Assembly: GCF_058153355.1 (NCBI RefSeq)
Contig: NZ_CM177019.1
Length of the DNA: 64,000 nt
Reading direction: 5' to 3' (one strand)
The notes under the pieces are model-generated. The model searched no databases. It was not told the origin of the DNA and saw only the letters and a program-made list of their open reading frames with translations. Positions 1,680 through 55,450 of this stretch are shown one piece after another. Position numbers and translations under genes: made by a program. Every line of letters starts with the position of its first letter. The stretch's first letter is position 1.

Positions 1680-2612
1680 ATGAGGAACGGAATGATGAAT
1701 AATAAAGTCAGCTTCACTAACAGCAATAATCCAACCATCTCTTTGTCTGCAGTGATCTATTTCCCTCCAAAATTTGATGAAACCCGTCAGTATCCGGCAA
1801 TTGTGGTATCTCACCCAGGTGGGGGCGTTAAAGAGCAAACGGCCGGAACCTATGCCGAAAAACTGGCGGAAAAGGGATTTGTCACTATTGCTTATGACGC
1901 ATCTTATCAAGGTGAAAGCGGCGGCGAGCCGCGTCAGTTAGAAAACCCATACATTCGTACTGAAGACGTCAGTGCCGTGATTGATTACCTGACAACGCTT
2001 TCTTATGTCGACAATACCCGAATTGGTGCGATGGGAATTTGTGCCGGTGCAGGATATACAGCCAATGCTGCAATTCAGGATCGCCGCATCAAGGCCATCG
2101 CTACCGTTAGTGCGGTCAATATTGGTTCGATGTTCCGTAATGGTTGGGAAAACAATGTGAAATCTATTGATGCCCTACCATACGTTGACGCGGGTTCAAA
2201 CGCCCGAACCAGCGATATTAGCAGCGGAGAATACGCCACTATGCCACTGGCACCAATGAAGGAGTCCGATGCGCCGAACGAAGAACTGCGTCAGGCCTGG
2301 GAGTATTACCACACCCCTCGCGCGCAGTATCCAACAGCACCGGGTTACGCTACTTTGCGCAGCCTTAACCAGATTATTACCTATGATGCTTACCATATGG
2401 CGGAAGTGTACCTGACTCAGCCGATACAGATTGTGGCGGGCAGCCAGGCAGGGAGCAAATGGATGAGTGACGACCTGTACGATCGAGCATCAAGCCAGGA
2501 TAAACGCTATCACATTGTTGAAGGCGCAAACCATATGGATCTTTATGACGGCAAAGTCTATGTGGCTGAATCAATTTCAGTATTAGCTCCGTTCTTTGAG
2601 GAAACTCTGTAA
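1680..2612 (+). CDS. Alpha/beta-hydrolase (dienelactone-hydrolase-like), ycjY-family, copy 1
   Basis: 310-aa ORF; paralogous to the next gene (shared FPPKFDE..QYPAI..AYDAS.QGESGGEPR..RIGxxGxCxGxGY blocks). True start may be one of the ATGs at 1692-1697 (AGGAA upstream). Stop TAA overlaps the next ATG (taATG at 2610-2614). Confidence 0.8.
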   Translation: MRNGMMNNKVSFTNSNNPTISLSAVIYFPPKFDETRQYPAIVVSHPGGGVKEQTAGTYAEKLAEKGFVTIAYDASYQGESGGEPRQLENPYIRTEDVSAVIDYLTTLSYVDNTRIGAMGICAGAGYTANAAIQDRRIKAIATVSAVNIGSMFRNGWENNVKSIDALPYVDAGSNARTSDISSGEYATMPLAPMKESDAPNEELRQAWEYYHTPRAQYPTAPGYATLRSLNQIITYDAYHMAEVYLTQPIQIVAGSQAGSKWMSDDLYDRASSQDKRYHIVEGANHMDLYDGKVYVAESISVLAPFFEETL

Positions 2613-3551
2613 TGAAACATATTCAAATCCGTAATAGTGATATGGCCTGGCATATTGCTGCCAATATTCAGTTTCCACCAAATTTTGATGAGTCAAAACA
2701 GTATCCGGCGATTATCAGCGTCCATCCTTTTGGCAGTTGTAAGGAGCAGACGTCTGGCAATATCTATGGCAAGGCATTGGCTGAAAAAGGCTATGTCGTT
2801 CTCGCTTATGACGCCAGTTTCCAGGGAGAATCTGGTGGGGAGCCTCGTTGGATAGAAGATCCGACACAGCGCGTAGAGGATATTAGCCGTGTTATCGATT
2901 ATGCAGTAACTCTGCCATATGTTGATGCTGAACGCATTGGCGTGCTGGGTGTGTGTGTGGGGGGGGGGGGGTGGCTATGCCATTAATGCCGCGCTGACAG
3001 AAAAACGAATTAAAGCTGTAGTGAGTATTACGGGTGTTAATATCGGGCGTCTTTTTCGGGAAGGTTTCAGCAATTACGATCCGATTGGCGCATTGAATGC
3101 AATGGCGTCGCAACGAACCAAAGAGGCTCGTGGTGGAGAATTACAGATCAACGAATTACTTCCCGCCAGCCTGGATGCAGCAAAAGCCCATGGACTGACC
3201 GAACGCGATGTTTATGAAGCAACTGACTACTATAAAACACCACGCGGGCAACAACCGGGAGGTGCGACAAAAATGTTGTTCTCACATGCACAGAAAACGC
3301 TGGCCTGGGATGCCTTCGCATTTACTGAAGTGTTACTGACTCAGCCGGTGATGGTAGTAGTTGGTGAAAAAGTCGGTGCCTTCGGTGCTTATCGTGATGG
3401 ACTGGAAGTCTATGGCCGGGCGATGGTTTCGCAGGATCGTCAGTTAGTTTCGTTACCCGATTTCTCACATTATGAACTGTATGACAAACCGGAAGCAGTT
3501 CAGGAGGCGCTGGAAAAAGTTATTCCTTTTTTCAACACCCATCTGGGATAA
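2612..3551 (+). pseudogene. Alpha/beta-hydrolase, ycjY-family, copy 2, interrupted by a +1 frameshift in a 13-G homopolymer (2959-2971)
   Basis: ORF track splits it into 2612..2986 (ends ...GVCVGGGGWLCH*) and 2919..3551 (reads ...WVCVWGGGGGYAINAAL...). Removing one G gives a continuous ~312-aa frame, GVCVGGGGGYAINAALTEKRIK, collinear with copy 1. Confidence 0.75.
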
Positions 3552-3556
3552 GTTTC

Positions 3557-4207
3557 ATGAGAAATATTATGAAAAAAGTACTCATTCTTGGTGCTGGCGG
3601 TCAGATAGCCCGCCATGTGATTAATCAACTGGCAGATAAACAAACCATTAAACAAACTTTATTTGCTCGTCAGCCAGCAAAAATACACAAACCCTATCCA
3701 ACTAATAGCCAGATTATTATGGGGGATGTACTGAATCATGCAGCACTGAAGCAGGCCATGCAGGGACAGGATATTGTGTATGCCAACCTTACGGGGGAAG
3801 ATTTAGATATTCAGGCAAATTCAGTGATCGCTGCGATGAAAGCCTGTGATGTTAAACGTCTGATCTTTGTTCTTTCCCTCGGCATTTATGATGAAGTTCC
3901 AGGAAAATTTGGCGAATGGAATAATGCAGTTATTGGTGAGCCCCTAAAACCATTCCGCAGGGCTGCGGATGCAATTGAGGCTTCTGGACTGGAATATACA
4001 ATTCTTCGCCCTGCCTGGCTGACTGATGAAGATATTATTGATTATGAGCTTACCTCACGCAATGAACCATTCAAAGGTACGATCGTATCACGTAAGAGTG
4101 TCGCAGCATTAATCACAGATATCATCGATAAACCTGAGAAACACATTGGTGAGAATATAGGCATCAATCAACCCGGGACTGATGGTGATAAGCCCTTCTT
4201 CATGTAA
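3557..4207 (+). CDS. NAD(P)-binding Rossmann-fold protein (NmrA/SDR-like); probably the intact form of the locus annotated ymjC in K-12
   Basis: 216-aa ORF with N-terminal KKVLILGAGGQIARHV glycine-rich dinucleotide-binding motif; position between ycjY and mpaA. Confidence 0.7.
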   Translation: MRNIMKKVLILGAGGQIARHVINQLADKQTIKQTLFARQPAKIHKPYPTNSQIIMGDVLNHAALKQAMQGQDIVYANLTGEDLDIQANSVIAAMKACDVKRLIFVLSLGIYDEVPGKFGEWNNAVIGEPLKPFRRAADAIEASGLEYTILRPAWLTDEDIIDYELTSRNEPFKGTIVSRKSVAALITDIIDKPEKHIGENIGINQPGTDGDKPFFM

Positions 4208-4225
4208 ATCAATTATATAGCTACC

Positions 4226-4257
4226 ATCGTACTGTACTATGTGCAGTACGATTTATT
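4226..4257 (+). terminator. Hairpin (atcgtactg / cagtacgat) followed by ttatt
   Basis: 9-bp inverted repeat with 9-nt loop starting 19 bp after the stop at 4207, followed by a T-rich run. Confidence 0.55.
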
Positions 4258-4371
4258 AAACTTATTAAGGTGAACTGATCAATCAGATGCGATTAACATG
4301 TGTAGAACCAGTAAGAATAAAATACGCCATGTATATAACATTACGACAATTCTAATATCTGCACATCAATG

Positions 4372-4408
4372 AAAATACAAACAACTTCCGGCAAAAAAGT
4401 GATACAAG
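4372..4408. repeat. Copy B of the imperfect ~35-bp direct repeat, upstream of mpaA
   Basis: See 376-410. Confidence 0.6.
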
Positions 4409-4497
4409 ATCGATAACATAGCGTTGAAGAAAAGGATTTGATAATCCGCAAAATTTGCACAACACTGCCTGTAATACTTCCTGAACCAGAGACGATT

Positions 4498-5226
4498 ATG
4501 ACCGTAACCCGCCCACGCGCCGAACGCGGCGCATTTCCGCCCGGAACAGAACATTACGGACGTTCATTATTGGGCGCGCCGTTAATCTGGTTTCCGGCCC
4601 CTGCAGCCAGTCGCGAAAGTGGTTTGATTCTGGCTGGCACTCACGGTGATGAAAACTCTTCGGTCGTCACGCTCTCCTGTGCTCTGCGGACTTTGACACC
4701 GTCTTTGCGCCGCCATCATGTAGTGCTGTGTGTGAATCCTGACGGCTGCCAGTTAGGGTTACGGGCCAATGCTAATGGTGTGGATTTAAACAGAAACTTT
4801 CCGGCGGCGAACTGGAAGGAGGGTGAAACGGTTTATCGCTGGAACAGCGCGGCTGAAGAACGTGATGTCGTATTACTGACAGGTGACAAACCTGGCTCCG
4901 AACCTGAAACCCAGGCGCTGTGCCAGCTTATACACCGCATTCAACCTGCCTGGGTGGTCTCATTCCACGATCCACTGGCCTGTATTGAAGATCCCAGACA
5001 CAGCGAATTAGGCGAATGGCTGGCCCAGGCGTTTGGATTGCCTCTGGTAACCAGCGTCGGTTATGAAACTCCTGGCTCTTTCGGCAGTTGGTGTGCGGAT
5101 CTCAACCTGCATTGCATCACCGCAGAGTTTCCACCTATCTCCTCCGACGAAGCCAGCGAAAAATACCTCTTTGCGATGGCTAACTTGCTGCGCTGGCATC
5201 CTAAAGATGCAATGCGCCCGTCGTGA
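4498..5226 (+). CDS. mpaA: Murein peptide amidase A (gamma-D-Glu-Dap amidase, zinc carboxypeptidase family)
   Basis: ORF 4438..5226; internal start MTVTRPRAERGAFPPGTEHYGRS... gives 242 aa matching E. coli MpaA; HGDE zinc-binding motif present. Confidence 0.9.
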   Translation: MTVTRPRAERGAFPPGTEHYGRSLLGAPLIWFPAPAASRESGLILAGTHGDENSSVVTLSCALRTLTPSLRRHHVVLCVNPDGCQLGLRANANGVDLNRNFPAANWKEGETVYRWNSAAEERDVVLLTGDKPGSEPETQALCQLIHRIQPAWVVSFHDPLACIEDPRHSELGEWLAQAFGLPLVTSVGYETPGSFGSWCADLNLHCITAEFPPISSDEASEKYLFAMANLLRWHPKDAMRPS

Positions 5227-6166
5227 ATTGAAGCGCTGGTTCCACATCTACCGCCAGCCAGGTCGGTCCGTCAAGATCAGCAAAACTGACCTGCGGCACC
5301 AGCGGTAAAGCGGCGCTAATGGCACGAGAGGTACACAACATGCAGCCCAGCATCAGACTGAAACCTTGTGCACGCGCTTCGGTCGCCAGCGCCAGCGCTT
5401 CCGTCAGGCCACCCGTTTTATCGAGCTTAATGTTAACCATCTCATAGCGCCCTTTCAGCGCCTTCAGATTGCTACGAGTATGACAACTTTCATCTGCACA
5501 AATCGGTAACGGATGAATAAAATTCTCCAGTGCCGCATCGTCCTGCGCAGGAAGCGGTTGTTCAAGCATCGCAACGCCTAAATCCGCCAATAGCTGGCAA
5601 CGCGCCGCCAACCCTTCTGCACGCCAGGATTCATTTGCATCAACGATTAGCGTCGCATCGGGTACAGCCGTGCGAATTGCTACCATCCGCTCACTGATAA
5701 GATGGTTATCCAGCTTCACTTTCAGTAATTTCGCGCCTGCCTGCCAGAGTGTTGATGCACTATTGGCCATCTGATCAGGCGTACCGATGACTACCGTCTG
5801 GGCAGTGGTGACTGTCTCGGGAAGCGTTATGCCGATCAAATCAGCCAGCGATTGCTGCTGTTTTCGCGCCGCCAGATCCCACAATGCACAATCCAGCGCA
5901 TTACGTGCTGCGCCGGCAGGGAGAATTTTTTGCAACTCCTCCCGTGTCAGCCCTTTCTCTAATTGCGGCACGACGCTCATAATTTGCGCCATTACCGAGG
6001 CATCACTTTCTCCATAACGCGGATACGGCGTGCATTCACCGGTGCCTTTAATACCTTCTTCTTCCAGTTCAACCACCACCACGCGCGCTTCACTACGACT
6101 TCCCCGAGCAATCACAAACGGGGTATGTAAGGGCCAGGCTTCCTCAAATACCTTAACGATTCTCAT
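5201..6166 (-). CDS. ycjG: L-Ala-D/L-Glu epimerase (enolase superfamily)
   Basis: ORF 5201..6208; start at MRIVKVFEEAWPLHTPFVIARGSR gives 321 aa; convergent with mpaA and overlapping its 3' end by 26 bp. Confidence 0.9.
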   Translation of the reverse strand: MRIVKVFEEAWPLHTPFVIARGSRSEARVVVVELEEEGIKGTGECTPYPRYGESDASVMAQIMSVVPQLEKGLTREELQKILPAGAARNALDCALWDLAARKQQQSLADLIGITLPETVTTAQTVVIGTPDQMANSASTLWQAGAKLLKVKLDNHLISERMVAIRTAVPDATLIVDANESWRAEGLAARCQLLADLGVAMLEQPLPAQDDAALENFIHPLPICADESCHTRSNLKALKGRYEMVNIKLDKTGGLTEALALATEARAQGFSLMLGCMLCTSRAISAALPLVPQVSFADLDGPTWLAVDVEPALQFTTGALHL

Positions 6167-42642: not shown

Positions 42643-43519
42643 CGTATACAGCGAAAAGCGCCCGCCGGGCACGCTGCGTACCGCCTGGCGCAAATTTTAT
42701 AGTGATGCCTCTGCGATGGTCGGTCTGTACGGCTGCGCGGGACTGGCTGTACTGTGTATTTTTGGCGGCTGGTTTGCGCCTTACGGAATCGATCAGCAAT
42801 TTCTCGGCTATCAATTATTGCCGCCTTCATGGTCACGCTATGGCGAAGTTTCTTTCTTCCTGGGGACTGACGACCTCGGACGCGATGTTTTAAGTCGTTT
42901 ACTGAGTGGAGCTGCACCAACCGTGGGGGGGGCATTTGTGGTGACGCTTGCAGCGACGATCTGTGGCCTGGTACTTGGCACCTTTGCCGGGTCGACGCAC
43001 GGTCTACGCTCAGCGGTGCTTAACCATATTCTGGATACCTTACTGGCGATCCCTTCCCTACTGCTGGCAATTATCGTTGTAGCGTTTGCCGGACCGAGTT
43101 TGTCGCACGCCATGTTTGCCGTCTGGCTGGCGCTGCTGCCTCGTATGGTACGTTCGATTTACAGCATGGTGCATGACGAACTGGAAAAAGAGTACGTTAT
43201 CGCCGCCCGTCTGGATGGCGCATCAACGCTGAATATTCTCTGGTTTGCTGTGATGCCAAACATCACCGCCGGGCTGGTCACCGAGATCACCCGCGCACTG
43301 TCGATGGCAATTCTCGATATCGCCGCGCTGGGCTTTCTCGATCTCGGCGCACAACTCCCCTCGCCTGAATGGGGAGCGATGCTCGGTGATGCGCTGGAAC
43401 TGATTTATGTCGCCCCGTGGACTGTCATGCTGCCAGGTGCGGCAATTATGATTAGCGTGCTGTTGGTTAACCTCCTTGGCGACGGTGTTCGTCGTGCAAT
43501 TATTGCGGGGGAGGAATAA
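42629..43519 (+). CDS. sapC: Sap ABC transporter permease
   Basis: 296-aa hydrophobic ORF. Confidence 0.9.
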
Positions 43520-44511
43520 TGCCATTACTCGATATTCGTAACCTGACCATTGAATTTAAAACCGGTGATGAGTGGGTTAAAGCCGTCGACCGCGTAAGTA
43601 TGACCTTAACCGAAGGTGAAATCCGCGGTCTTGTTGGCGAATCCGGTTCCGGCAAAAGTTTGATTGCAAAAGCAATTTGTGGGGTGAATAAAGATAACTG
43701 GCGTGTTACTGCTGACCGTATGCGTTTTGATGATATCGATTTGCTGCGTCTCTCCGCACGCGAACGGCGCAAGCTGGTTGGTCACAACGTGTCGATGATT
43801 TTCCAGGAACCGCAGTCGTGTCTTGACCCTTCAGAACGTGTGGGTCGCCAGTTGATGCAAAACATCCCAGCCTGGACCTATAAAGGCCGTTGGTGGCAGC
43901 GTTTTGGCTGGCGCAAACGCCGTGCCATTGAACTACTGCACCGTGTGGGGATTAAAGATCACAAAGATGCGATGCGCAGTTTTCCCTATGAGTTGACCGA
44001 AGGTGAATGTCAGAAAGTGATGATAGCCATTGCACTGGCGAATCAACCGCGTCTGCTGATTGCTGACGAACCGACAAACTCAATGGAGCCAACAACCCAG
44101 GCGCAAATTTTTCGCCTGTTGACGCGTCTCAACCAAAACAGCAATACCACTATTTTGCTTATCAGCCATGACTTACAAATGCTTAGCCAATGGGCGGATA
44201 AAATTAACGTGCTTTACTGCGGTCAAACGGTGGAAACCGCGCCAAGCAAGGAGTTGGTGACAATGCCACATCATCCTTATACCCAGGCGCTGATCCGCGC
44301 GATACCAGACTTCGGCAGCGCGATGCCGCATAAAAGTCGCCTCAATACGCTGCCCGGCGCTATCCCACTGCTGGAACAGTTACCGATTGGGTGTCGTCTG
44401 GGGCCGCGTTGCCCGTATGCACAACGAGAATGCATTGTGACGCCACGTTTGACGGGGGCGAAAAATCATCTCTATGCCTGTCATTTCCCGCTGAACATGG
44501 AGAAAGAGTGA
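43519..44511 (+). CDS. sapD: Sap ABC transporter ATP-binding protein
   Basis: 330-aa ORF with Walker A GESGSGKS. Confidence 0.9.
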
Positions 44512-44512
44512 G

Positions 44513-45319
44513 ATGATCGAAACGCTGCTTGAAGTGCGTAATTTAAGTAAAACGTTCCGCTACCGGACCGGCTGGTTTCGTCGTCAGACCGTAGAAGCGG
44601 TAAAACCCTTGAGCTTTACGCTACGTGAAGGCCAGACACTGGCGATCATTGGCGAGAATGGTTCTGGTAAATCCACGCTGGCAAAAATGCTGGCGGGAAT
44701 GATAGAACCTACCAGCGGCGAGTTATTGATTGACGATCATCCGCTGCATTTTGGCGATTATTCCTTCCGCAGTCAGCGTATTCGCATGATTTTTCAGGAT
44801 CCTTCGACCTCGTTAAATCCCCGTCAACGTATCTCGCAAATTCTGGATTTTCCACTGCGTCTGAACACCGATCTGGAACCTGAACAGCGTCGCAAACAGA
44901 TTATTGAAACGATGCGTATGGTTGGGCTGCTACCGGATCACGTCAGTTACTATCCGCATATGTTGGCACCCGGGCAAAAACAGCGTCTGGGGCTGGCGCG
45001 CGCGCTGATATTGCGCCCAAAAGTCATTATTGCCGATGAAGCCCTCGCCTCACTGGATATGTCGATGCGTTCGCAGTTGATTAATCTGATGCTGGAATTA
45101 CAGGAAAAACAGGGCATTTCGTATATTTATGTTACCCAGCATATCGGAATGATGAAGCACATTAGCGACCAGGTGCTGGTGATGCATCAGGGAGAGGTTG
45201 TCGAGCGAGGTAGTACTGCGGATGTGCTCGCCTCTCCGCTGCACGACCTCACTAAACGACTGATTGCCGGTCATTTTGGCGAGGCATTGACGGCGGATGC
45301 GTGGCGTAAGGACCGTTAG
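44513..45319 (+). CDS. sapF: Sap ABC transporter ATP-binding protein
   Basis: 268-aa ORF with Walker A GENGSGKST. Confidence 0.9.
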   Translation: MIETLLEVRNLSKTFRYRTGWFRRQTVEAVKPLSFTLREGQTLAIIGENGSGKSTLAKMLAGMIEPTSGELLIDDHPLHFGDYSFRSQRIRMIFQDPSTSLNPRQRISQILDFPLRLNTDLEPEQRRKQIIETMRMVGLLPDHVSYYPHMLAPGQKQRLGLARALILRPKVIIADEALASLDMSMRSQLINLMLELQEKQGISYIYVTQHIGMMKHISDQVLVMHQGEVVERGSTADVLASPLHDLTKRLIAGHFGEALTADAWRKDR

Positions 45320-45325
45320 TGTTTT

Positions 45326-45368
45326 GCACCTCATCCTGACAGGCCCCCCCCCTCAGGATGAGGTGTTC
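45326..45368. terminator. Bidirectional hairpin between the convergent sapF and MFS genes, with a C10 homopolymer in the loop
   Basis: cacctcatcctga - caggcccccccccc - tcaggatgaggtg; 13-bp perfect stem. Confidence 0.6.
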
Positions 45369-45369
45369 A

Positions 45370-46533
45370 TTACTTTTGATTGTCGATTCTGGTGAGAGCA
45401 ACCAGCAATGCCAGCGTATAACACACCGTAATTGCCAGACTCATTTTTAACAGTGTTTCTCCGCCAATTCCCGACAATGGCGCGGCTATACCGCCGAAGA
45501 CAAACATGCTCATCCCCATCAACGCAGACGCCGTTCCAGATTCCTGCGTCCCTACTGCACTCATAGCCTCTGCCCCGCCAACAGTGCCGATGCCGCTACA
45601 AAATGCGATGGTGAAAAATAATGCCACCAGTGCCGGAATGGGCAATTGTACCCATGCGCATAAGACCGTGAGCAATGCACACAAAATTGCCGCTATCAGG
45701 CCACCTCGCAACAATGTCATCGCGTTAATCCGTCGCGCCAGGCGCGAGAAGATCCATGAAGCAATGATAAGTCCGATGCCGTTAAGGCCAAACACCAGGC
45801 TAAATTGCATTGGACTAAAGCCAAATTCCTTCTGCAACACGAACGACGAAGAGCCGATATACGCAAACAAACCGGCCAGCATAAAACTTTGAATCAGGCA
45901 AAAGCGCATAAAAAGGCGGTTCTGCACCACGCTTCGTCCGGTTAATAGCAATGATGAGCCCCTTTTATTTTCTGGCAAGGTCTCATTAATAAATAACAGG
46001 CAGCCCAGCAACAGTACGGTGCTAATTTCAGCCATTACCCAGAATAAAGTGCGCCAGTCAAAAGTGCTAACAATGTACCCGCCCAGCACTGGCGACAACA
46101 CCGGTGCCAGGCCATTCACCGTCATTAACAGCGCAAAAAACTGGGTCAACGTTACTCCCTGATATTTGTCACGAGCAATAGAACGAGAGAGCACCGAACC
46201 ACCCGCCCCCGCGATCCCTTGAATAAAACGCCAGACCACCAGCCAGTAAATATTGTTCGTTGTCGCGCACAAAATGGAAGAAACAATAAACAATAGCAAC
46301 GACAAGATTAACGGACGTTTACGCCCTATTTTGTCGCTCAGAGGGCCAAATAACAGTTGTCCGACGCCAAGACCGATCAGTGATGCAGTCAGGGTTAATT
46401 GCGTTATGGTCGTGGTTGCCGCCAGTTGCTCAGACATCTCCGGCAAAGCCGGCAAATAAAGATCGGTACACATCGGGCCGATACCGGCTAAAAGACCAAG
46501 AATCAATGCCCATGAAAGAGAGACTCTAGCCAT
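45370..46533 (-). CDS. MFS transporter, 12-TM drug:H+ antiporter type (Bcr/CflA-like)
   Basis: 387-aa hydrophobic ORF with MFS signature region GPLSDKIGRKRP; last gene of a co-directional efflux cluster. Confidence 0.8.
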   Translation of the reverse strand: MARVSLSWALILGLLAGIGPMCTDLYLPALPEMSEQLAATTTITQLTLTASLIGLGVGQLLFGPLSDKIGRKRPLILSLLLFIVSSILCATTNNIYWLVVWRFIQGIAGAGGSVLSRSIARDKYQGVTLTQFFALLMTVNGLAPVLSPVLGGYIVSTFDWRTLFWVMAEISTVLLLGCLLFINETLPENKRGSSLLLTGRSVVQNRLFMRFCLIQSFMLAGLFAYIGSSSFVLQKEFGFSPMQFSLVFGLNGIGLIIASWIFSRLARRINAMTLLRGGLIAAILCALLTVLCAWVQLPIPALVALFFTIAFCSGIGTVGGAEAMSAVGTQESGTASALMGMSMFVFGGIAAPLSGIGGETLLKMSLAITVCYTLALLVALTRIDNQK

Positions 46534-46541
46534 ATTATTCC

Positions 46542-47915
46542 TTACTTGAGTGATGACATGCCGCCGCCCAGCGACTGCCAGAGCGTGATTCGGTTTGTAA
46601 AATCAGTCAGTTGCAGTGCCAGCAGCTCCTGCTGTGCGCTCCACAAGCTGCGCTGCGCCGTCAACACGGTCAGGTAATCACCAACACCCGCCTGATAGCG
46701 ACGCAAGCCAACATCGACCGTTTGTTGCTCAGCTTTAACATACTGGCGCTGTGCATCCAGTTGCTCTTCAAGCGTGGTCCGCCGCGCCAGTGCGTTAGCG
46801 ACATCTTTAAATGCGCTCTGAACGGTTTTTTCATAGGTGGCAATGAGCCCACGCTTTTGTGCTTCTGCGTAACGAAGCTGCGCCAGATTACTTCCGCCAG
46901 TGAACAGCGGTAATGTGACCGATGGTGCAAATGACCAGATCTGCATTCCGTGGCTGAACAACGACGACAATGCGTCACTGCCCACACCGGCACTGGCAGT
47001 CAGCGAAATCGTCGGGAAAAAGTTAGCCCGCGCCGCGCCAATATCTGCATTGGCGCTCTTCAAATTATGTTCCGCTTCCTGGATATCCGGGCGACGCAGC
47101 AGAACATCAGATGATACTCCCGCAGGAACCAGACTTATCATTTGTTCCGGCAGGCTTTCCAGTGTTCCCGGTAGCAGATTTTCCGCAAGCGTTGTACCTG
47201 CCAGTAAGTTCAGCGCATTTTTATCCTGCATCACTTGTGTCTGATAGCTGGCAACGCTGGCGCGCGCTTGCTGATAAACACTCATCGCCTCACTGACATC
47301 TGTCGCTGCCGCCGTGCCAACCTGTTGCTGGCGCTGGATAATTTTCAATGAGTTTTCTGCACTGGCCATCGTTTCTTTTGCCAGGGCCAGGTTGCTGTTA
47401 TCGGCCGCCAGTGTCAGCCAGGCGGTGCTGATTTCAGCAATCAGCGTTAAACGAGTGTTCTGGGCTGTAAATTCACTGGCAAGCCAGGTTTCCCGCGCCG
47501 CCCGAGATAAACTCTGATTACGACCAAACAGATCTAACGTATAACTGGACACCGTGCCGTCAGCCTCGGCAGTTGTTCCCGTACCATTCGCCAGCGAACG
47601 ACTGCGAGTCGAACTTAAGGCCGCATTCACCGTCGGAAATAACGACGCATTAGTTTGCCCATAGAGCGCCCGTGCTGAGTCAATATCAGCAATCGCTTTT
47701 TGCACATCGCGGTTACTGTTCAGTGCAATGGTTACTACCTGCTGCAATCGGGGATCGTGAATCACCTGCTGCCAGTCATGGCTGATTGCCTTCCCCTGGC
47801 CCTGTGCTCCCGGCAAGGTCGCCGGGATTGGGGATTCAGGCGTACTGTAGTGAGGATCGAGCGAGACACATCCCGCACTCAACAACACCAGAAAAATAAG
47901 AGAACGACGCAACAT
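46542..47915 (-). CDS. Outer-membrane efflux lipoprotein (NodT/OprM family)
   Basis: 457-aa ORF with lipobox (LLSAGCVSL) and OEP-type repeats. Confidence 0.85.
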   Translation of the reverse strand: MLRRSLIFLVLLSAGCVSLDPHYSTPESPIPATLPGAQGQGKAISHDWQQVIHDPRLQQVVTIALNSNRDVQKAIADIDSARALYGQTNASLFPTVNAALSSTRSRSLANGTGTTAEADGTVSSYTLDLFGRNQSLSRAARETWLASEFTAQNTRLTLIAEISTAWLTLAADNSNLALAKETMASAENSLKIIQRQQQVGTAAATDVSEAMSVYQQARASVASYQTQVMQDKNALNLLAGTTLAENLLPGTLESLPEQMISLVPAGVSSDVLLRRPDIQEAEHNLKSANADIGAARANFFPTISLTASAGVGSDALSSLFSHGMQIWSFAPSVTLPLFTGGSNLAQLRYAEAQKRGLIATYEKTVQSAFKDVANALARRTTLEEQLDAQRQYVKAEQQTVDVGLRRYQAGVGDYLTVLTAQRSLWSAQQELLALQLTDFTNRITLWQSLGGGMSSLK

Positions 47916-47918
47916 AAC

Positions 47919-50900
47919 TTACTCCTGACGGCGCGGTTTACCGGCAAACAAACGTTTCACCAGTACAAAAAACAGAGGAACGAAGAAAATGGCCAGTAAT
48001 GTAGCGGTCAGCGTGCCGCCAATAATGCCCGTACCAATGGCGATGCGGCTGTTCGCCCCTGCACCGGTTGCTATCGCCAGCGGCATTACCCCCGCAATAA
48101 ACGCCAGCGAGGTCATGATGATTGGGCGTAAACGAGTCTGCGCCGCGCGTAATGCCGCACGACTCAAGGAATAACCCTCTGCAACCGCCGCTTCAGCAAA
48201 TTCCACAATCAGAATGGCGTTTTTCGACGACAAGCCGATAGTAGTTAATAGCGCTACCTGGAAGTAAACGTCGTTGTTTAAATCACGCATCCAGGCCGCC
48301 AGCGCCGCGCCAAGAAGCCCCAGAGGGATCACCAGAATGACCGAGAACGGGACTGACCAGCTTTCGTACAGTGCTGCAAGGCAGAGGAAAACCACCAGAA
48401 TAGAAACTGCATACAGACTTAATGCCTGACCGCTCGCCAGTTTCTCCTGCAATGACAAACCACTCCAGGCCCAGGTTGTTCCCGCAGGAAGACTGTTTGC
48501 CAGTTCCTCCATTTTTGTCATTGCATCGCCGGAACTAAAGCCAGTCGCGTTTTCGCCCTGAATTTCATAGGCTGCCGAGCCGTTGTAGCGCACCAGTCTT
48601 TCCGGTCCATACTGCCAGCGGGTGGTCGCAAAAGCAGAGAATGGTGTCATGGCGTTATCGCTACCGCGCACAAACCATTTACCTAAGTCTGACGGCGCAG
48701 AACGAAATTCGCTGTCGCCCTGAATGTAGACTTTTTTCACACGACCACGGTCAATAAAGTCATTCACATAAGTACCGCCCCACGCACTGGACAGGGTGTC
48801 GGTGACATCATTCAAACTCAACCCTAATGACACCGCTTTATTGCTATCAATATCTACCTGCAATTGCGGCATTTGTGGCAAATCATTGGCGCGTACAGAA
48901 TGTAACTCCGGACTTTGATTCGCTTTTTCTATCAACTGATTACGCATTTGCAGCAGTGTTTCACGATCGGTTCCACCGTTAGCTAACAATTCAAACGTAA
49001 AACCATTGCTTTGGCCCAGCCCATCAACGGCTGGCGGCGTCATCGCAAATACCGTCGCATCACGAATTGTGCCCAGCTCTTTGGTAGCCCGTAGGGCGAT
49101 AGCCTGGGCGGTGTTTTCTGCCCCTTTACGTTGAGACCAGTTTTTCAACGAAACAAACGCCATCCCGGTGTTCTGTCCGCTGCCGCTAAAACTGAAACCA
49201 TCAACGGTAAAAATGACATCGGTATTTGCTTTCTCGTTAATCAGGAACCAGTCAACAATCTGGCGATTCACTTCTGCTGTACGGGCAGCGGTCGCCCCGG
49301 CCGGCAGCGTGTACTGCACCATGATTTCGCCCTGGTCTTCAGTGGGTAAGAAACTGCCCGGCAGTTTCCACATCATCAGGGCCATTCCACCACCCAGCAC
49401 GACATAAAGCCCCATCGTTCGGGCTGCACGGCGCAGGACATAAATTACGCCTCGCTGATATTTATCTTCAGTACGGCGGTAAAAGCGGTTAAATGCGCCG
49501 AAAAAGCCTTTTTTATGTGGCGGAACATGCTGGAGGACGGAACCGCACAGGGCGGGAGTCAAGGTCAATGCCACCACCACGGAAAGCAGCATTGCGGAGA
49601 TGATGGTGATGGAGAACTGACGATAAATTACGCCCGTAGATCCCCCAAAGAAGGCCATCGGCAGGAATACGGCTGACAACACCAGCGCAATGGCAACCAG
49701 TGCGCCAGAAATCTCGCCCATTGATTTTTCCGTGGCTTCACGCGCGGGCAACCCTTCGTCACGCATAATGCGTTCGACGTTCTCCACCACCACAATGGCA
49801 TCGTCCACCAGCAAGCCGATCGCCAGCACCATTGCAAACAACGTCAGGGTATTAATCGAATAGCCAAACAACGCAAGAACGCCGAATGTGCCCAGCCAAA
49901 CGACGGGGACAGCTAACGCCGGAATCAGTGTGGCACGCAGGTTTTGCAGGAATAAATACATCACGCAAACCACCAATACGATGGCTTCAAACAGCGTCTG
50001 AATTACGTCCTCTACGGAGATTTTAATAAATTCAGTGCTGTCTTTCGGGTATGCGATGTCGTATCCCTGCGGCATGTTCCGCTGGAATTCGGCAATCTTA
50101 TCCTTGACCAGCGTCGCCGTATTCAGCGCATTCGCACCGGGCGAAAGCATTACAGCAACCCCGGCAGACGGGTGACCGTTAAGTTTGCCGATAGCGGTAT
50201 AATCTTCACTGCCCATCTCAACGCGAGCCACATCTTTTATACGAACAACTGCGCCGTCTGACTGGCTTTTCACGATAATATTTTTGAACTGATCCACCGT
50301 CTGCAAGCGAGACTGCGCACGTACCGTTGCGGTCAGTTGCTGAGTATCCGGTGAAGGCAATGCCCCTATTTTCCCGGCAGTAACCTGCACGTTTTGCGCT
50401 TCAATAGCACTTTGCACGTCTGAAGGCATCAGCGAGTAAGACGCCAGTTTGGCCGGGTCGAGCCAGATGCGCATAGCGTATTCCGCGCCAAAGACTTGCA
50501 GACTCCCCACACCTTCAACACGCGCCAGGGGGTCCTGAACGTTACTGACCAGCCAGTCGGCGATATCCGAACTGGAGGCTTTGTCAGTGGTGTCATACAC
50601 GGCAGCAATCAGCAAAAAGTTGCTTTGTGATTTCTCCACCGTAACACCCGTTTGCTGCACTTCGCTGGGTAGGCGCGACTCCGCCTGCTGAATTTTATTC
50701 TGCACCTGAACCTGTGCAGTATCTGGATCGGTACCTTGTTCAAAGGTCACATTAATACTGACCGAACCATCAGAGCTACTGGTTGAGCTGAAATAGAGTA
50801 AATTATCAAGCCCAGTGAGTTGTTGCTCGATAACCTGAGTCACGCTGTTCTCCAGCGTTTCGGCAGAAGCACCAGTATAAGTGGCTGAAATTTTAATGGT

Positions 50901-51026
50901 CGGCGGTGCAACGTCAGGATATTGCGCGACGGGTAATGTGCGAATAGCCAGAATCCCCGCCAACATAATCAAAATGGCGATAACCCAGGCAAAGACCGGG
51001 CGGCGAACAAAAAAGCGCGAAAACAT
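47919..51026 (-). CDS. RND multidrug efflux permease (AcrB/HAE1 family)
   Basis: 1035-aa ORF MFSRFFVRRPVFAWVIAILIMLAGILAI...; size and N-terminus typical of AcrB-like pumps. Confidence 0.9.
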   Translation of the reverse strand: MFSRFFVRRPVFAWVIAILIMLAGILAIRTLPVAQYPDVAPPTIKISATYTGASAETLENSVTQVIEQQLTGLDNLLYFSSTSSSDGSVSINVTFEQGTDPDTAQVQVQNKIQQAESRLPSEVQQTGVTVEKSQSNFLLIAAVYDTTDKASSSDIADWLVSNVQDPLARVEGVGSLQVFGAEYAMRIWLDPAKLASYSLMPSDVQSAIEAQNVQVTAGKIGALPSPDTQQLTATVRAQSRLQTVDQFKNIIVKSQSDGAVVRIKDVARVEMGSEDYTAIGKLNGHPSAGVAVMLSPGANALNTATLVKDKIAEFQRNMPQGYDIAYPKDSTEFIKISVEDVIQTLFEAIVLVVCVMYLFLQNLRATLIPALAVPVVWLGTFGVLALFGYSINTLTLFAMVLAIGLLVDDAIVVVENVERIMRDEGLPAREATEKSMGEISGALVAIALVLSAVFLPMAFFGGSTGVIYRQFSITIISAMLLSVVVALTLTPALCGSVLQHVPPHKKGFFGAFNRFYRRTEDKYQRGVIYVLRRAARTMGLYVVLGGGMALMMWKLPGSFLPTEDQGEIMVQYTLPAGATAARTAEVNRQIVDWFLINEKANTDVIFTVDGFSFSGSGQNTGMAFVSLKNWSQRKGAENTAQAIALRATKELGTIRDATVFAMTPPAVDGLGQSNGFTFELLANGGTDRETLLQMRNQLIEKANQSPELHSVRANDLPQMPQLQVDIDSNKAVSLGLSLNDVTDTLSSAWGGTYVNDFIDRGRVKKVYIQGDSEFRSAPSDLGKWFVRGSDNAMTPFSAFATTRWQYGPERLVRYNGSAAYEIQGENATGFSSGDAMTKMEELANSLPAGTTWAWSGLSLQEKLASGQALSLYAVSILVVFLCLAALYESWSVPFSVILVIPLGLLGAALAAWMRDLNNDVYFQVALLTTIGLSSKNAILIVEFAEAAVAEGYSLSRAALRAAQTRLRPIIMTSLAFIAGVMPLAIATGAGANSRIAIGTGIIGGTLTATLLAIFFVPLFFVLVKRLFAGKPRRQE

Positions 51027-52147
51027 CAGGCATTGCCTCCATTAGCCTGAACTTCAACAGCCTTGACGGTCTGCCCTGAAGTGACTTTGGCAGAACCTTC
51101 AACAATCAGTCGGTCGCCGTTGTGCAGGCCGTTCAGCACCAGCCATTTATCACCATACGTTTCTCCCGTTTCGAGCGTTCGCTGCTCTACTTTATTGTCT
51201 TTATTCACCACCAGCGCAGTTGCATTGCCTTTAGCATCGCGCGTAACGCCCTGTTGAGGCGCGAGAATAGCGTTTTCCATCACGCCTTCATCGACACGAG
51301 CGCGAACAAACATTCCCGGTAATAACTGCTGTTGTGGATTGGGGAAAATTGCCCGTAATGTCACCGAACCGGTAGACTCATCCACCGCGACTTCGGTGAG
51401 TTCCAGACGCCCTTTTTCGCTGTAGGTTGTGCCATCTTCCAGAATAAGTGAGACGCTCATGGTGTCACTGTTGGTCGCCAGTGACTGTTTACGCAGACGT
51501 AATAAATCGACACTGGAGCGAGTGAGGTCGACATACATTGTATCCAGACCACGAATAGTCGTTAACGCTGTATCCTGCGACGCGGTCACCAGTGCGCCAG
51601 GGGTTACCGACGAAATACCAATACGCCCCGAAATCGGTGCGGTTACCGTGGTCCAGTCAAGATTAATGCGCGCAGTTTCCAGTGCGGCTTTTTTCGCCTC
51701 TACACTGGCTTTATCTTGTGCACAGGTAGACTGAGCATCATCAGCATCCTGTTGTGAAACACCATTCTCTTTCACCAGTCGGGCATAACGCTGCGCTTTC
51801 TGGCAATCGGCTTTTACCAGTGCCTGTGCTTGTTGTAATGCTGCCCGGGCTTCATTCCATGCAGCCTGATAACTGGCCGCATCAATCTGGTAGAGAGGCT
51901 GTCCAGCCTTGACCAGATCACCTTCCTTAAATAAGCGTTTCTGGATAATTCCCCCAACTTGCGGACGTACTTCAGCACTGAGCGCAGCACTGGTGCGTCC
52001 GGTTAATTCACTGACTACCGAAACCGGTTGAGATTTGAGCGTAACAACGCCGACTTCTGTTTCTGACGGGGATGAATTGTTACTTTGCGTATTATCACAA
52101 CCCGATAAGAGCAGCATTGCCACTACAGATGTTGCTATATACTTCAT
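51026..52147 (-). CDS. Periplasmic adaptor (membrane fusion protein, AcrA-like) of the RND pump
   Basis: ORF 51026..52180; preferred start MKYIATSVVAMLLLSGC (lipobox) at 52147, preceded by GGAG; stop overlaps the RND start. Confidence 0.85.
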   Translation of the reverse strand: MKYIATSVVAMLLLSGCDNTQSNNSSPSETEVGVVTLKSQPVSVVSELTGRTSAALSAEVRPQVGGIIQKRLFKEGDLVKAGQPLYQIDAASYQAAWNEARAALQQAQALVKADCQKAQRYARLVKENGVSQQDADDAQSTCAQDKASVEAKKAALETARINLDWTTVTAPISGRIGISSVTPGALVTASQDTALTTIRGLDTMYVDLTRSSVDLLRLRKQSLATNSDTMSVSLILEDGTTYSEKGRLELTEVAVDESTGSVTLRAIFPNPQQQLLPGMFVRARVDEGVMENAILAPQQGVTRDAKGNATALVVNKDNKVEQRTLETGETYGDKWLVLNGLHNGDRLIVEGSAKVTSGQTVKAVEVQANGGNA

Positions 52148-52174
52148 TATTTTCTCCAGGGTGAGAAATACCCT

Positions 52175-52275
52175 CCTCATTGAAATTAATGAGGATATGT
52201 CAGGGATATTCAGTTATAACGAACCCGCATCGCGAAATGAATTTCGCAATGAAATAAGGGGGATTAATATCCCCC
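52175..52275. promoter_or_regulatory. Cluster of three inverted repeats between the TetR gene and the MFP gene (candidate operators / pump promoter)
   Basis: tcctcatt-gaaatt-aatgagga (52174-52195), gcgaaat-ga-atttcgc (52232-52247), ggggga-ttaata-tccccc (52258-52275). Confidence 0.5.
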
Positions 52276-52295
52276 GCTATTGGTTAATTCTGTTC

Positions 52296-52862
52296 TTATT
52301 TATTTATCAACATACTAACAATATCCTGATATATTTCCTGCAGATGTTGTGGATCGCTTTTTTGCGGTGTTAAACGACGATAAACCGTACCTTCCATCAT
52401 GGTAGCAAACACTTCAACGCAGCAATGAATGTGATCGTCGCTAAGATGGGGATGCATTCTTTTCATATGTGCACAACCGTTAGCGAACATTCTGGCGTCA
52501 GCTTCTTCAAGCATTGCCATAACCCGCGGGTTGCGTGTGGCTTCTGCAGCCACTTCCAGCATCAGCGCGTCGTCGTCCTCATTTAAGGATTTACGCAAGG
52601 CAAGGACTTCCGGGAAGTGATCGGTACGCGCGTCAATGTCCATTTGGGCAATACGAAAGTCGATGATACGGCGAACCATCTCTTCAATAATGGCGTCTTT
52701 GTTGGCGAAGTAACGATATATCTGACCCACGCTAAGCTGAGCTTCGCTGGCAATTTGCGACATACTGGCGGCATGAAATCCGCAGCGACGAAAACACCGA
52801 CGGGCGGCGTTAATGATTTCATCCTGACGCTGTTTGTGGCGTATCTCCAGCTTGCTGGTCAT
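52296..52862 (-). CDS. TetR/AcrR-family transcriptional regulator
   Basis: ORF 52296..52961; preferred start MTSKLEIRHKQRQDEIINAARRCFRRCGFHAASMSQIASEAQLSVGQIYRYFANK (HTH near N-terminus), preceded by AGGAGA; co-directional with the pump genes. Confidence 0.75.
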   Translation of the reverse strand: MTSKLEIRHKQRQDEIINAARRCFRRCGFHAASMSQIASEAQLSVGQIYRYFANKDAIIEEMVRRIIDFRIAQMDIDARTDHFPEVLALRKSLNEDDDALMLEVAAEATRNPRVMAMLEEADARMFANGCAHMKRMHPHLSDDHIHCCVEVFATMMEGTVYRRLTPQKSDPQHLQEIYQDIVSMLINK

Positions 52863-52888
52863 TTCTGTCTCCTGGCCTATCACTTGGT

Positions 52889-52904
52889 GAGAATGATCAT
52901 TCTC
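52889..52904. promoter_or_regulatory. 16-bp perfect palindrome gagaatgatcattctc upstream of the TetR gene (candidate autoregulatory operator)
   Basis: Perfect dyad seen directly, 27 bp upstream of the preferred TetR start. Confidence 0.5.
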
Positions 52905-53339
52905 ATTTTTGCTAATTATACGTTTCTCCAAAGTAATGGAAAGTATTTTTATCTTATTCATGGTGCATATTCTGATAATGAAGAGATTGTGGAGATTCTG
53001 TGAAGATAGTTGACAATATTAAGTTGGGGTCAATTCATCAGAAAGGCAGCGACTTGTTGTCGCCAGTTCTGTTTTCATCATCAAACTTATCGGAGCTAAT
53101 ACGAATAGTTTCATAGTCAGATTCTATAAGATATTTCCCCAACCTACCCCTTGCAGGCGTCAAGAGTAGATAACGCAAAATGCTCTGTACCGCAGCTTCT
53201 CTCCGGTACAGAAAGCGCAACTATAGCCACCCACAGCCAGGTTGATTATAATAACCGTTTATCTGTTCGTACTGTTTACTAAAACGACGAATCGCCTGAT
53301 TTTCAGGCACAACAAGCATCAACAATAAGGATTAAAGCT

Positions 53340-54128
53340 ATGGGTTTTCTTTCCGGTAAGCGCATTCTGGTAACCGGTGTTGCCAGCAAACTGTCCATCG
53401 CCTACGGTATCGCTCAGGCGATGCACCGCGAAGGAGCTGAACTGGCATTCACCTACCAGAACGACAAACTGAAAGGCCGCGTAGAAGAATTTGCCGCTCA
53501 ATTGGGTTCTGACATCGTTCTGCAGTGCGATGTTGCAGAAGATGCCAGCATCGACACCATGTTCGCTGAACTGGGTAAAGTTTGGCCGAAATTTGACGGC
53601 TTTGTACATTCCATTGGTTTTGCACCGGGCGATCAGCTGGATGGTGACTATGTTAACGCCGTTACTCGTGAAGGCTTCAAAATTGCCCACGACATCAGCT
53701 CCTACAGCTTCGTTGCAATGGCAAAAGCTTGCCGCTCCATGCTGAATCCGGGCTCTGCCCTGCTGACCCTTTCCTACCTTGGCGCTGAGCGCGCTATCCC
53801 GAACTACAACGTTATGGGTCTGGCAAAAGCGTCTCTGGAAGCGAACGTGCGCTATATGGCGAACGCGATGGGTCCGGAAGGTGTGCGTGTTAACGCCATC
53901 TCTGCTGGTCCGATCCGTACTCTGGCGGCTTCCGGTATCAAAGACTTCCGCAAAATGCTGGCTCATTGCGAAGCCGTTACCCCGATTCGCCGTACCGTTA
54001 CTATTGAAGATGTGGGTAACTCTGCGGCATTCCTGTGCTCCGATCTCTCTGCCGGTATCTCCGGTGAAGTGGTCCACGTTGACGGCGGTTTCAGCATCGC
54101 TGCAATGAACGAACTCGAACTGAAATAA
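53340..54128 (+). CDS. fabI: Enoyl-ACP reductase (NADH), FabI
   Basis: 262-aa [43 protein letters not shown]...; recognised as E. coli FabI. Confidence 0.95.
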
Positions 54129-54180
54129 TTTGACGGCGGTTTCAGCATCGCTGCAATGAACGAACTCGAACTGAAATAAT
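54079..54180 (+). repeat. Perfect 51-bp tandem duplication covering the last 16 codons and stop of fabI plus 2 bp
   Basis: Unit ttgacggcggtttcagcatcgctgcaatgaacgaactcgaactgaaataat occurs at 54079-54129 and again at 54130-54180 with no mismatch. Confidence 0.9.
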
Positions 54181-54322
54181 CGTTCTGTTGGTCAAGATGG
54201 GCGGCGTTCTGCCGCCCATCATCTCTGTTATACCTTTCTGATATTTGTTATCGCCGATCCGTCTTTCTCCCCTTCCCGCCTTGCGTCAGGATAACGATTT
54301 CCTTTACGACCAAGGAGCGCCC

Positions 54323-55450
54323 ATGGAACAACGCCACATCACCGGCAAAAGCCACTGGTATCATGAAACACAATCCAGTACTGCGGAGAATGACGTTCTG
54401 CCTCTGGTCCCGGAAGCCGCAAAGGTTCGCGATCCCTTTCTGCTCGACGTGATCCTTGATGAAGAAACGCTGGCCCCCTTCCTTTCATGGATGGTCCCGG
54501 CGCGCATTCTTGCAGCGGAGTTGTTCCCTGACCAGCTTACTGTGACCCGTTCACAGACCTTCACCGCTTATGAACGCTTGTCGACGGCCCTGACGGTTGC
54601 TCAGGTTTGCGGCGTCCAGCGGTTATGTAACTACTATTCGGCGCGACTTACGCCGCTCCCCGGGCCTGATTCCTCCAGGGAAAGTAATCATCGGTTGGCA
54701 CAAATCACGCAATATGCCCGCCAACTGGCCAGCTCGCCTTCTATTATCGACAACCGATCGCGCCAACATCTGAATGACGTCGGTCTTACTGCCTGGGACT
54801 GTGTGATAATCAACCAAATAATTGGTTTTATTGGCTTTCAGGCGCGGACAATTGCCACATTTCAGGCTTATCTCGGGCATTCGGTACGCTGGTTACCCGG
54901 TCTGGAGATACAAAACTACGCCGACGCGTCACTGTTTGCTGATGAATCAATACGCTGGCGAAGCAGCTATGAGGTGGAAAAACTACCTGAAGAGCACACA
55001 AAAAGTTCTAATGCAGAACTTTGCCAACTGACCGAAACACTCTCTCTCCACCCTATTTCACTTTCCCTTCTCGAAAAGTTGTTAAACAGCACACGGGTCA
55101 ATACACAGCCGGATAATAAGCTTGCGGCGTTGTTATGCGCGCGTATTAATGGCAGTCCTGCTTGTTTTGCCGCCTGTATGAATTCATCAAATGAATATAA
55201 AAAAATCAGCCCCCTTCTGCGCAAGGGCGAAAATGAAATTAACCAATGGGCTGACCGTGATTCTGTTGAGCGCGCTACCGTTCAGGCGATACAATGGCTG
55301 ACCCGAGCACCCGATCGCTTTAGCGCCGCCCAGTTCAGCCCATTACTCGAACACGAAAAATCATCAACGCAGATTATTAATCTGCTGGTATGGAGCGGGC
55401 TGTGTGGCTGGATAAATCGCTTAAAAATCGCGTTGGGTGAGACATATTAA
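54323..55450 (+). CDS. yciW: YciW (AhpD/carboxymuconolactone-decarboxylase-like putative oxidoreductase)
   Basis: ORF 54245..55450; start at [17 protein letters not shown] gives 375 aa; position between fabI and rnb. Confidence 0.85.

Follow-up and report, generated by a model that had tools for sequence, protein, structure and literature searches.

The run of cytosines at the junction between sapF and eefD lies in the apical loop of a single-copy, evolutionarily ancient stem-loop. The reading favoured here, at a probability of about two in three, is that the run is a neutrally drifting tract, carried by a hairpin whose own role would lie at the 3' ends of RNAs. The junction belongs to a window of 64,000 nt, the whole stretch of DNA that was analysed, taken from contig NZ_CM177019.1 of assembly GCF_058153355.1. 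The run is an ordinary, unconstrained homopolymer in a conserved intergenic hairpin, and the gene content of the junction has already been published. It is most likely that the run itself has no function.

Structure of the sapF-eefD junction

The gene to the left of the hairpin is sapF, the last gene of sapABCDF, which occupies positions 44513–45319 of the plus strand and ends in a TAG stop codon at 45317–45319. It was identified from the list of open reading frames and from the sapF annotation of the RefSeq locus L001. On the other side lies eefD (45370–46533, minus strand), which encodes an MFS efflux transporter of 387 residues and ends in a TAA stop codon at 45370–45372; it is the last gene of eefRABCD and is convergent with sapF. 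The segment to the right of sapF comprises genes for a TetR regulator, a periplasmic adaptor, an RND pump, an outer-membrane factor and the MFS transporter, followed by fabI. The efflux genes between sapF and fabI are the eefRABCD operon, which has been described before. Neither the sap nor the eef reading frames are disrupted in the window.

The stop codons of sapF and eefD are separated by 50 nt, of which the hairpin takes up 39. It is preceded by a 7-nt spacer (TGTTTTG, 45320–45326) that runs from the sapF stop codon to the stem. The left arm, CACCTCATCCTGA (45327–45339), pairs along its whole length with the right arm, TCAGGATGAGGTG (45353–45365), which is its exact reverse complement. The initial annotation had described a perfect 13-bp stem separating sapF from the MFS gene, and both the stem and its position between the two genes were confirmed: there are 13 base pairs with no mismatch, and a G-U pair between 45326 and 45366 can extend the helix to 14 pairs. 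The loop, CAGGCCCCCCCCC, is 13 nt long (45340–45352) and consists of CAGG followed by nine cytosines. The long C run reported in the loop is therefore present, but it had been counted as ten; the homopolymer, which is the length-polymorphic tract considered below, covers 45344–45352 on the plus strand and is G9 on the minus strand. The loop guanines at 45342 and 45343 can pair with two cytosines of the run, giving two inner G:C pairs. Judging from the related sequences, this pairing appears to be the vestige of a CAGG/CCTG stem extension that is still present in the N96 and E. albertii variants.

Folding of a 101-nt region gave −34.2 kcal/mol on the plus strand and −33.6 kcal/mol on the minus strand, which is more stable than shuffled sequences in both cases (z = −2.7 and −3.1, respectively). 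Within the window, the 13-mer arm occurs without mismatches only as the two arms of this hairpin, and Rfam covariance models run against positions 44000–47000 returned nothing at E ≤ 1. When the window was shuffled by mononucleotides, 35% of the shuffles held a G or C run of at least nine. The C run alone is consequently not statistically remarkable, and it is the setting of the run, not its statistics, that calls for explanation.

Length polymorphism of the loop tract

The loop of eef-positive E. coli has the form CA-G(2–4)-A(0–3)-C(5–9) across approximately 2,000 complete genomes and 51 metagenome contigs, and nine loop alleles were found in the 19 junctions that were read individually. Junction lengths were obtained by running a 140-nt query against the complete genomes and sampling 59 genomes evenly down the ranking; the junction measured 137, 138, 139, 140 and 141 nt in 33, 10, 6, 2 and 8 of them, respectively. 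G2C6 was the most frequent allele in the metagenome contigs (33 of the 51, all retrieved with a search pattern that itself imposes the identity of the arms), followed by G3C6 (12), G4C6 and G4A3C5 (two each), and G3C8 and G4A2C6 (one each). The stem was unchanged in the 19 eef-positive sequences read individually, save for the outermost base in phylogroup-E-like genomes. Comparison with orthologous junctions, which the initial annotation had proposed as a check, thus shows C5–C8 on the same stem in other eef-positive genomes. The suspicion that such tracts are prone to slippage is supported by this range of loop alleles, by the five length classes among the 59 sampled genomes and by the G13 tract elsewhere in the window, which varies from G7 to G15 in other genomes.

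All of the loop alleles tested were predicted to fold at −27 to −33 kcal/mol, on either strand, and so the length of the tract barely affects the structure; the predicted stability of the hairpin differs by only about 1–4 kcal/mol between alleles. With stability so little affected by the length of the tract, the variation of the loop is most likely neutral. The alleles are largely clonal, a common length being found in eight of the nine O157-like genomes in the sample, and the tract largely behaves as one that mutates often on an evolutionary scale and not as a fast switch. The loop tract also provides a small and easily typed length marker for the sapF-eefD junction of eef-positive E. coli.

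A simple history would account for this pattern. The stem would be kept complementary by selection, by self-correction of the palindrome, or by both, and the loop would be unconstrained. In eef-positive E. coli the loop would have degenerated into a G run followed by a C run; these runs would gain and lose bases through replication slippage, with some point substitutions as well, and the resulting alleles would mostly be inherited clonally.

The ninth cytosine of the window allele

The G2C9 allele of the window is a singleton and contains the longest C run seen; its closest relatives, with G2C8, have one base fewer. Of the 2039 eef-positive complete genomes, none gave a full-length match identical to the window (the best was 98.6% identical), and a search of the metagenome collection for a G2C allele of at least eight cytosines found none. 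The closest relatives were found through exact protein-sequence look-ups. One of these, L042 (GCA_043012465.1), aligned with positions 44418–54526 of the window over 10,109 bases with no mismatches and one gap, which is the difference between C8 and C9. Two others, L111 (GCA_026239435.1) and L117 (ERR4303330), matched the window at approximately 99.2% identity across 11.6 kb; both are G2C8, and each showed a single gap, at the loop tract. As three independent related assemblies carry the long G2C8 tract, it is best regarded as an inherited feature of this sub-lineage.

Whether the ninth cytosine is a true +1 slippage step or a single miscall is close to an even bet. The second of these, in which a true C8 has been miscalled by one extra base in the window, so that the long tract would be real and its last base an assembly error, is the most serious alternative and is given somewhat less than an even chance. 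It would account for the G2C8 of three independent related assemblies, one of which is otherwise base-identical over 10.1 kb, and for the finding of G2C9 in neither the 2039 complete genomes nor the metagenome collection; moreover, a single error would be likeliest in the longest G/C run. However, the assembly has no general homopolymer fault (41 of the 42 runs of at least 5 nt are the same as in L042), the sap and eef open reading frames are intact and the G8 run of sapC is correct. Differences of one base in the tract also occur among other close genomes, for example G3C6 and G3C5 in contigs that encode an identical EefD, and among O157:H7 genomes, which makes a real +1 step equally plausible.

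The stem is shared by several sapF-fabI junctions

In E. coli of phylogroups B2, D, E, F and G, and in E. albertii and E. marmotae, eefRABCD always lies between sapF and fabI, whereas ycjD takes its place in E. coli of phylogroups A, B1 and C; the pattern has been attributed to the loss of an eef operon that was present in the ancestor (PMC12817139, 2026). The hairpin is not mentioned in that description of the operon. The counts obtained here agree with the published distribution: among 5426 complete E. coli genomes, 2039 have an eef-type junction and 3378 a ycjD-type junction.

The hairpin had been placed exactly at one boundary of the putative accessory efflux segment. This holds for BLAST homology between the window and K-12, which ends at 45326, but not for the stem itself, which is common to eef-type, ycjD-type and E. 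albertii junctions. The K-12 junction, which leads into ycjD, reads CACCTCATTCTGACA-AAAGATTAAATCTT-TGTCAGAATGAGGTG; it contains the same stem with a double change from C:G to T:A, and another loop. The stem of the N96/ST69-like ycjD variant is CATTCTGACAGG...CCTGTCAGAATG, that of the L118 variant is CACCTTATTCTGACAAGA...TCTTGTCAGAATAAGTGG, which has a further double change, and the junction of E. albertii, in which eef is present, is CATTCTGACAGGGAGATAATCTCTGTCAGAATG. A stem common to all these junctions argues that the hairpin in the sapF 3' flank is ancestral and not a scar of eef insertion, and comparison of the junction sequences indicates that it predates the presence-absence polymorphism of eef and ycjD. 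A hairpin older than that polymorphism would constrain the breakpoints of the loss or replacement events.

The complementarity of the arms was examined in an alignment of nine sequences (A2). Over a 17-pair helix, 86% of the cells were paired, compared with 35–45% when the partner columns were slid, and compensatory two-sided changes were present at three pairs. In a DNA palindrome, compensatory changes can arise without selection, via template switching, with one arm serving to correct the other. Covariation is therefore no proof of an RNA function here; it shows that complementarity is maintained, but not the reason. Quasipalindromes are reportedly hotspots of template-switch mutation in E. 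coli, in work attributed to Ripley and to the Lovett laboratory. The hairpin resembles them in that it is an imperfect palindrome, its centre mutates often, its arms stay complementary and compensatory changes are found in both arms, but its homopolymer indels are more simply explained by slippage.

The eef-type element was found in one place per genome in the complete E. coli genomes. For the ycjD-type element the median was two places per genome, which was read as a single palindromic locus that is hit once on each strand. A scan of the genome-contig collection with a pattern covering both arms returned 0 Escherichia loci, though every eef-positive and ycjD-type junction fits the pattern, and its hits were long palindromes from Methylobacterium and other Alphaproteobacteria plus a single Enterobacter locus; since fitting E. 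coli junctions went unreturned, absence from that scan does not amount to absence from a genome. Homologues of EefD at 67–82% identity, in Kluyvera and others, lie in other genomic contexts with no sapF beside them, and so yielded no extended comparison.

These results also bear on a possible role of the hairpin at the level of DNA, as a target of recombination or insertion, or as a REP/MITE-like repeat, that mediates the exchange of eef and ycjD cassettes. Every cassette type opens with a hairpin variant directly after sapF, contigs with identical SapA carry three cassettes with a break in homology to the window at the sapF stop codon, and in Enterobacter sp. kpr-6 a gene for an rpn nuclease is preceded by a similar hairpin with a partly similar upstream flank. 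Nevertheless, such a role is improbable: there is one copy per genome and no second copy at the fabI-side boundary, the segment contains no transposase or integrase, and the published account is of loss of an ancestral eef operon (PMC12817139). In addition, the Enterobacter sequence has no BLAST match to E. coli, and the likeness is short enough to be a coincidence.

A repeat matching the hairpin was sought at the fabI-side boundary and none was found, and identity with a REP or MITE repeat was rejected, the element being single-copy. As with REP/BIME elements, the hairpin is an extragenic palindrome at the 3' end of an operon that could stabilise the upstream mRNA; unlike them, it is single-copy and does not contain the REP consensus.

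Several further junctions and palindromes were recorded. Contigs L111–L120, in which SapA is identical to that of the window, hold three different cassettes between sapF and fabI: eefRABCD, a type encoding a 120-residue DUF559/ycjD protein, and a third type in which no gene is called. In these contigs the homology with the window breaks off at the sapF stop codon (45318), and each cassette has its own hairpin variant. The hairpin of Enterobacter sp. kpr-6 (L028, positions 2057–2090) reads CACCTCATTCTGA-CAACGA-TCAGGATGAGGT, with a T-G wobble; it is flanked by an MFS gene and by an rpn gene for a YhgA-like nuclease, and may reflect either homology or coincidence. Long palindromes with outer arms ACCTCATCCTGAGG...CCTCAGGATGAGGT and variable interiors were found in Methylobacterium and other Alphaproteobacteria (L008–L027); two of the Methylobacterium genomes hold a pair of sites each, and the other genomes a single site. 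Their outer 12 nt coincide with the Escherichia stem, and they probably represent an unrelated family of repeats.

A putative role at RNA 3' ends

As the stem is a perfect palindrome, the hairpin would form in the transcripts of both sapF and eefD. For sapF it could bring about weak intrinsic termination, and for eefD it could shield the 3' end of the transcript as a stem-loop lacking a U tract. Considered together with the features of the flanking tails, the most likely role of the hairpin would be to mark or protect RNA 3' ends, perhaps with some intrinsic termination for sapF.

On the plus strand, the tail that follows the stem, UUCAUUACUUUUG, is moderately U-rich and provides a weak U tract, with four U in the first eight nucleotides (UUCAUUAC). 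The corresponding tail on the minus strand, CAAAACAC, is A-rich and contains no U. No U tract follows the stem on the plus strand in the K-12 and E. albertii variants, and a consensus terminator scanner picked up only a 5-bp sub-hairpin at the junction. The hairpin resembles an intrinsic terminator in being a stable, G+C-containing stem-loop, at about −28 to −31 kcal/mol on either strand, with a perfect stem of 13–14 bp that starts 7 nt past the sapF stop codon, in the presence of some U residues in the plus-strand tail, and in its location between convergent genes. It differs in the size of its loop, which at 10–14 nt is above the usual, in the absence of a U tract on the minus strand, and in its tail, which the ycjD-type and E. 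albertii variants do not preserve; nor does it have the layout of a bidirectional terminator, with an A tract upstream and a U tract downstream. Because the U tract is weak on the plus strand, missing on the minus strand and missing in K-12 and E. albertii, the hairpin fits poorly with the canonical picture of intrinsic termination.

In E. coli, Rho-dependent transcripts have steady-state 3' ends that are set by stable stem-loops lacking a U tract, which shield them from 3'-5' exonucleases (Dar & Sorek 2018, PMC6061677). The junction hairpin has the defining feature of this class, a stable stem-loop that is not followed by U-rich sequence, on the minus strand, and the K-12 and E. albertii variants have it on the plus strand as well; its stem is also conserved and lies just 3' of a stop codon. 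It is unlike the members of the class in that one palindrome would serve two convergent transcripts. If correct, a 3'-end element shared by two convergent operons would be a tidy, though unsurprising, case of a known class. A search of the literature for sapF and a terminator found only a paper on co-transcription of sapABCDF and fabI in Dickeya.

The variable tract might instead be a contingency (phase-variation) locus, the length of which tunes termination or the interference between convergent sap and eef transcription. Like the poly-G and poly-C tracts of contingency loci in Neisseria, Haemophilus and Campylobacter, it is a G/C mononucleotide tract, of 5–9 nt, the length of which differs among strains, and it lies within a structure that both transcripts must traverse. 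However, the C run is located downstream of both genes, with a stop codon on either side, and outside any promoter spacer or reading frame, so that there is no open reading frame or promoter to switch and no on/off effect; a scan for a promoter-like site overlapping the C tract found none. The shift of about 1–4 kcal/mol in predicted stability is small, and the alleles are mostly clonal: besides the single length of eight of the nine O157-like genomes, G2C8 has been stable over approximately 0.8% divergence. A high rate of switching is disfavoured by this clonality, and phase variation is accordingly a very unlikely explanation.

The sap genes are associated with putrescine export and peptide resistance, and the eef genes with RND efflux. 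It is conceivable, at long odds, that the palindrome is a shared bidirectional 3'-end element of the two convergent operons in which the loop tract slowly tunes read-through or antisense interference, giving rise to heritable differences in cross-talk between lineages. A hairpin with a 3'-end role and a neutrally drifting loop is the reading retained.

Other G/C runs in the window

The C run had been grouped with two other long G/C runs. The G13 run was correctly located at 2959–2971, and the G8 run in sapC, which had been given as 42926–42933, occupies 42925–42932. The latter results from two synonymous changes (GGT GGC to GGG GGG), and ten independent assemblies share it unchanged. A second alpha/beta hydrolase gene (2612–3551), beside ycjY, contains the G13 run and is split by it into two open reading frames (2612–2986 and 2919–3551). 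In other E. coli the tract is G7, G8 (with an intact gene encoding 310 aa), G9, G10 or G15, or has the interrupted form GGGGGTGGT, in which the gene is intact; the gene is annotated as 'frameshifted' in O157:H7, O55:H7 and other genomes. On this comparison, the coding G13 tract is a truly hypervariable poly-G, and it is the more interesting of the three runs. The corresponding locus of L042 was not retrieved, as a look-up with the open reading frame at 1680–2609 gave no record and the gene for the LysR-family regulator is ubiquitous.

The initial annotation had raised systematic homopolymer error across the assembly as the source of all three runs, and this is very improbable: although G13 splits the hydrolase gene and C9 is unlike every other genome, the loop tract is the sole difference from L042 over 10.1 kb (where 41 of 42 runs agree), only one of the four indels relative to L001 (98.6% identical over 18 kb) is in a homopolymer, namely the loop tract, the sapC G8 is in frame and common to ten assemblies, and the hydrolase tract is frameshifted or variable (G7–G15) in many independent RefSeq genomes. 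The long G/C runs can be taken as real features of the lineage and not as signs of a poor assembly, and the neighbouring gene calls as trustworthy.

Two further observations concern the window as a whole. A perfect 51-bp tandem duplication at 54079–54180 takes in the last 50 nt of fabI (53340–54128) and one further base; L042 has it too, and it is missing from both L001 and K-12. For positions 1–25000, the best match among the 5,426 complete E. coli genomes was only 94.9% identical over the full 25 kb; positions 2061–5707 and the sap-eef region are 98–99% identical to E. coli assemblies. These identities suggest that the window has a mosaic structure, in which common E. coli-like segments are combined with divergent ones.
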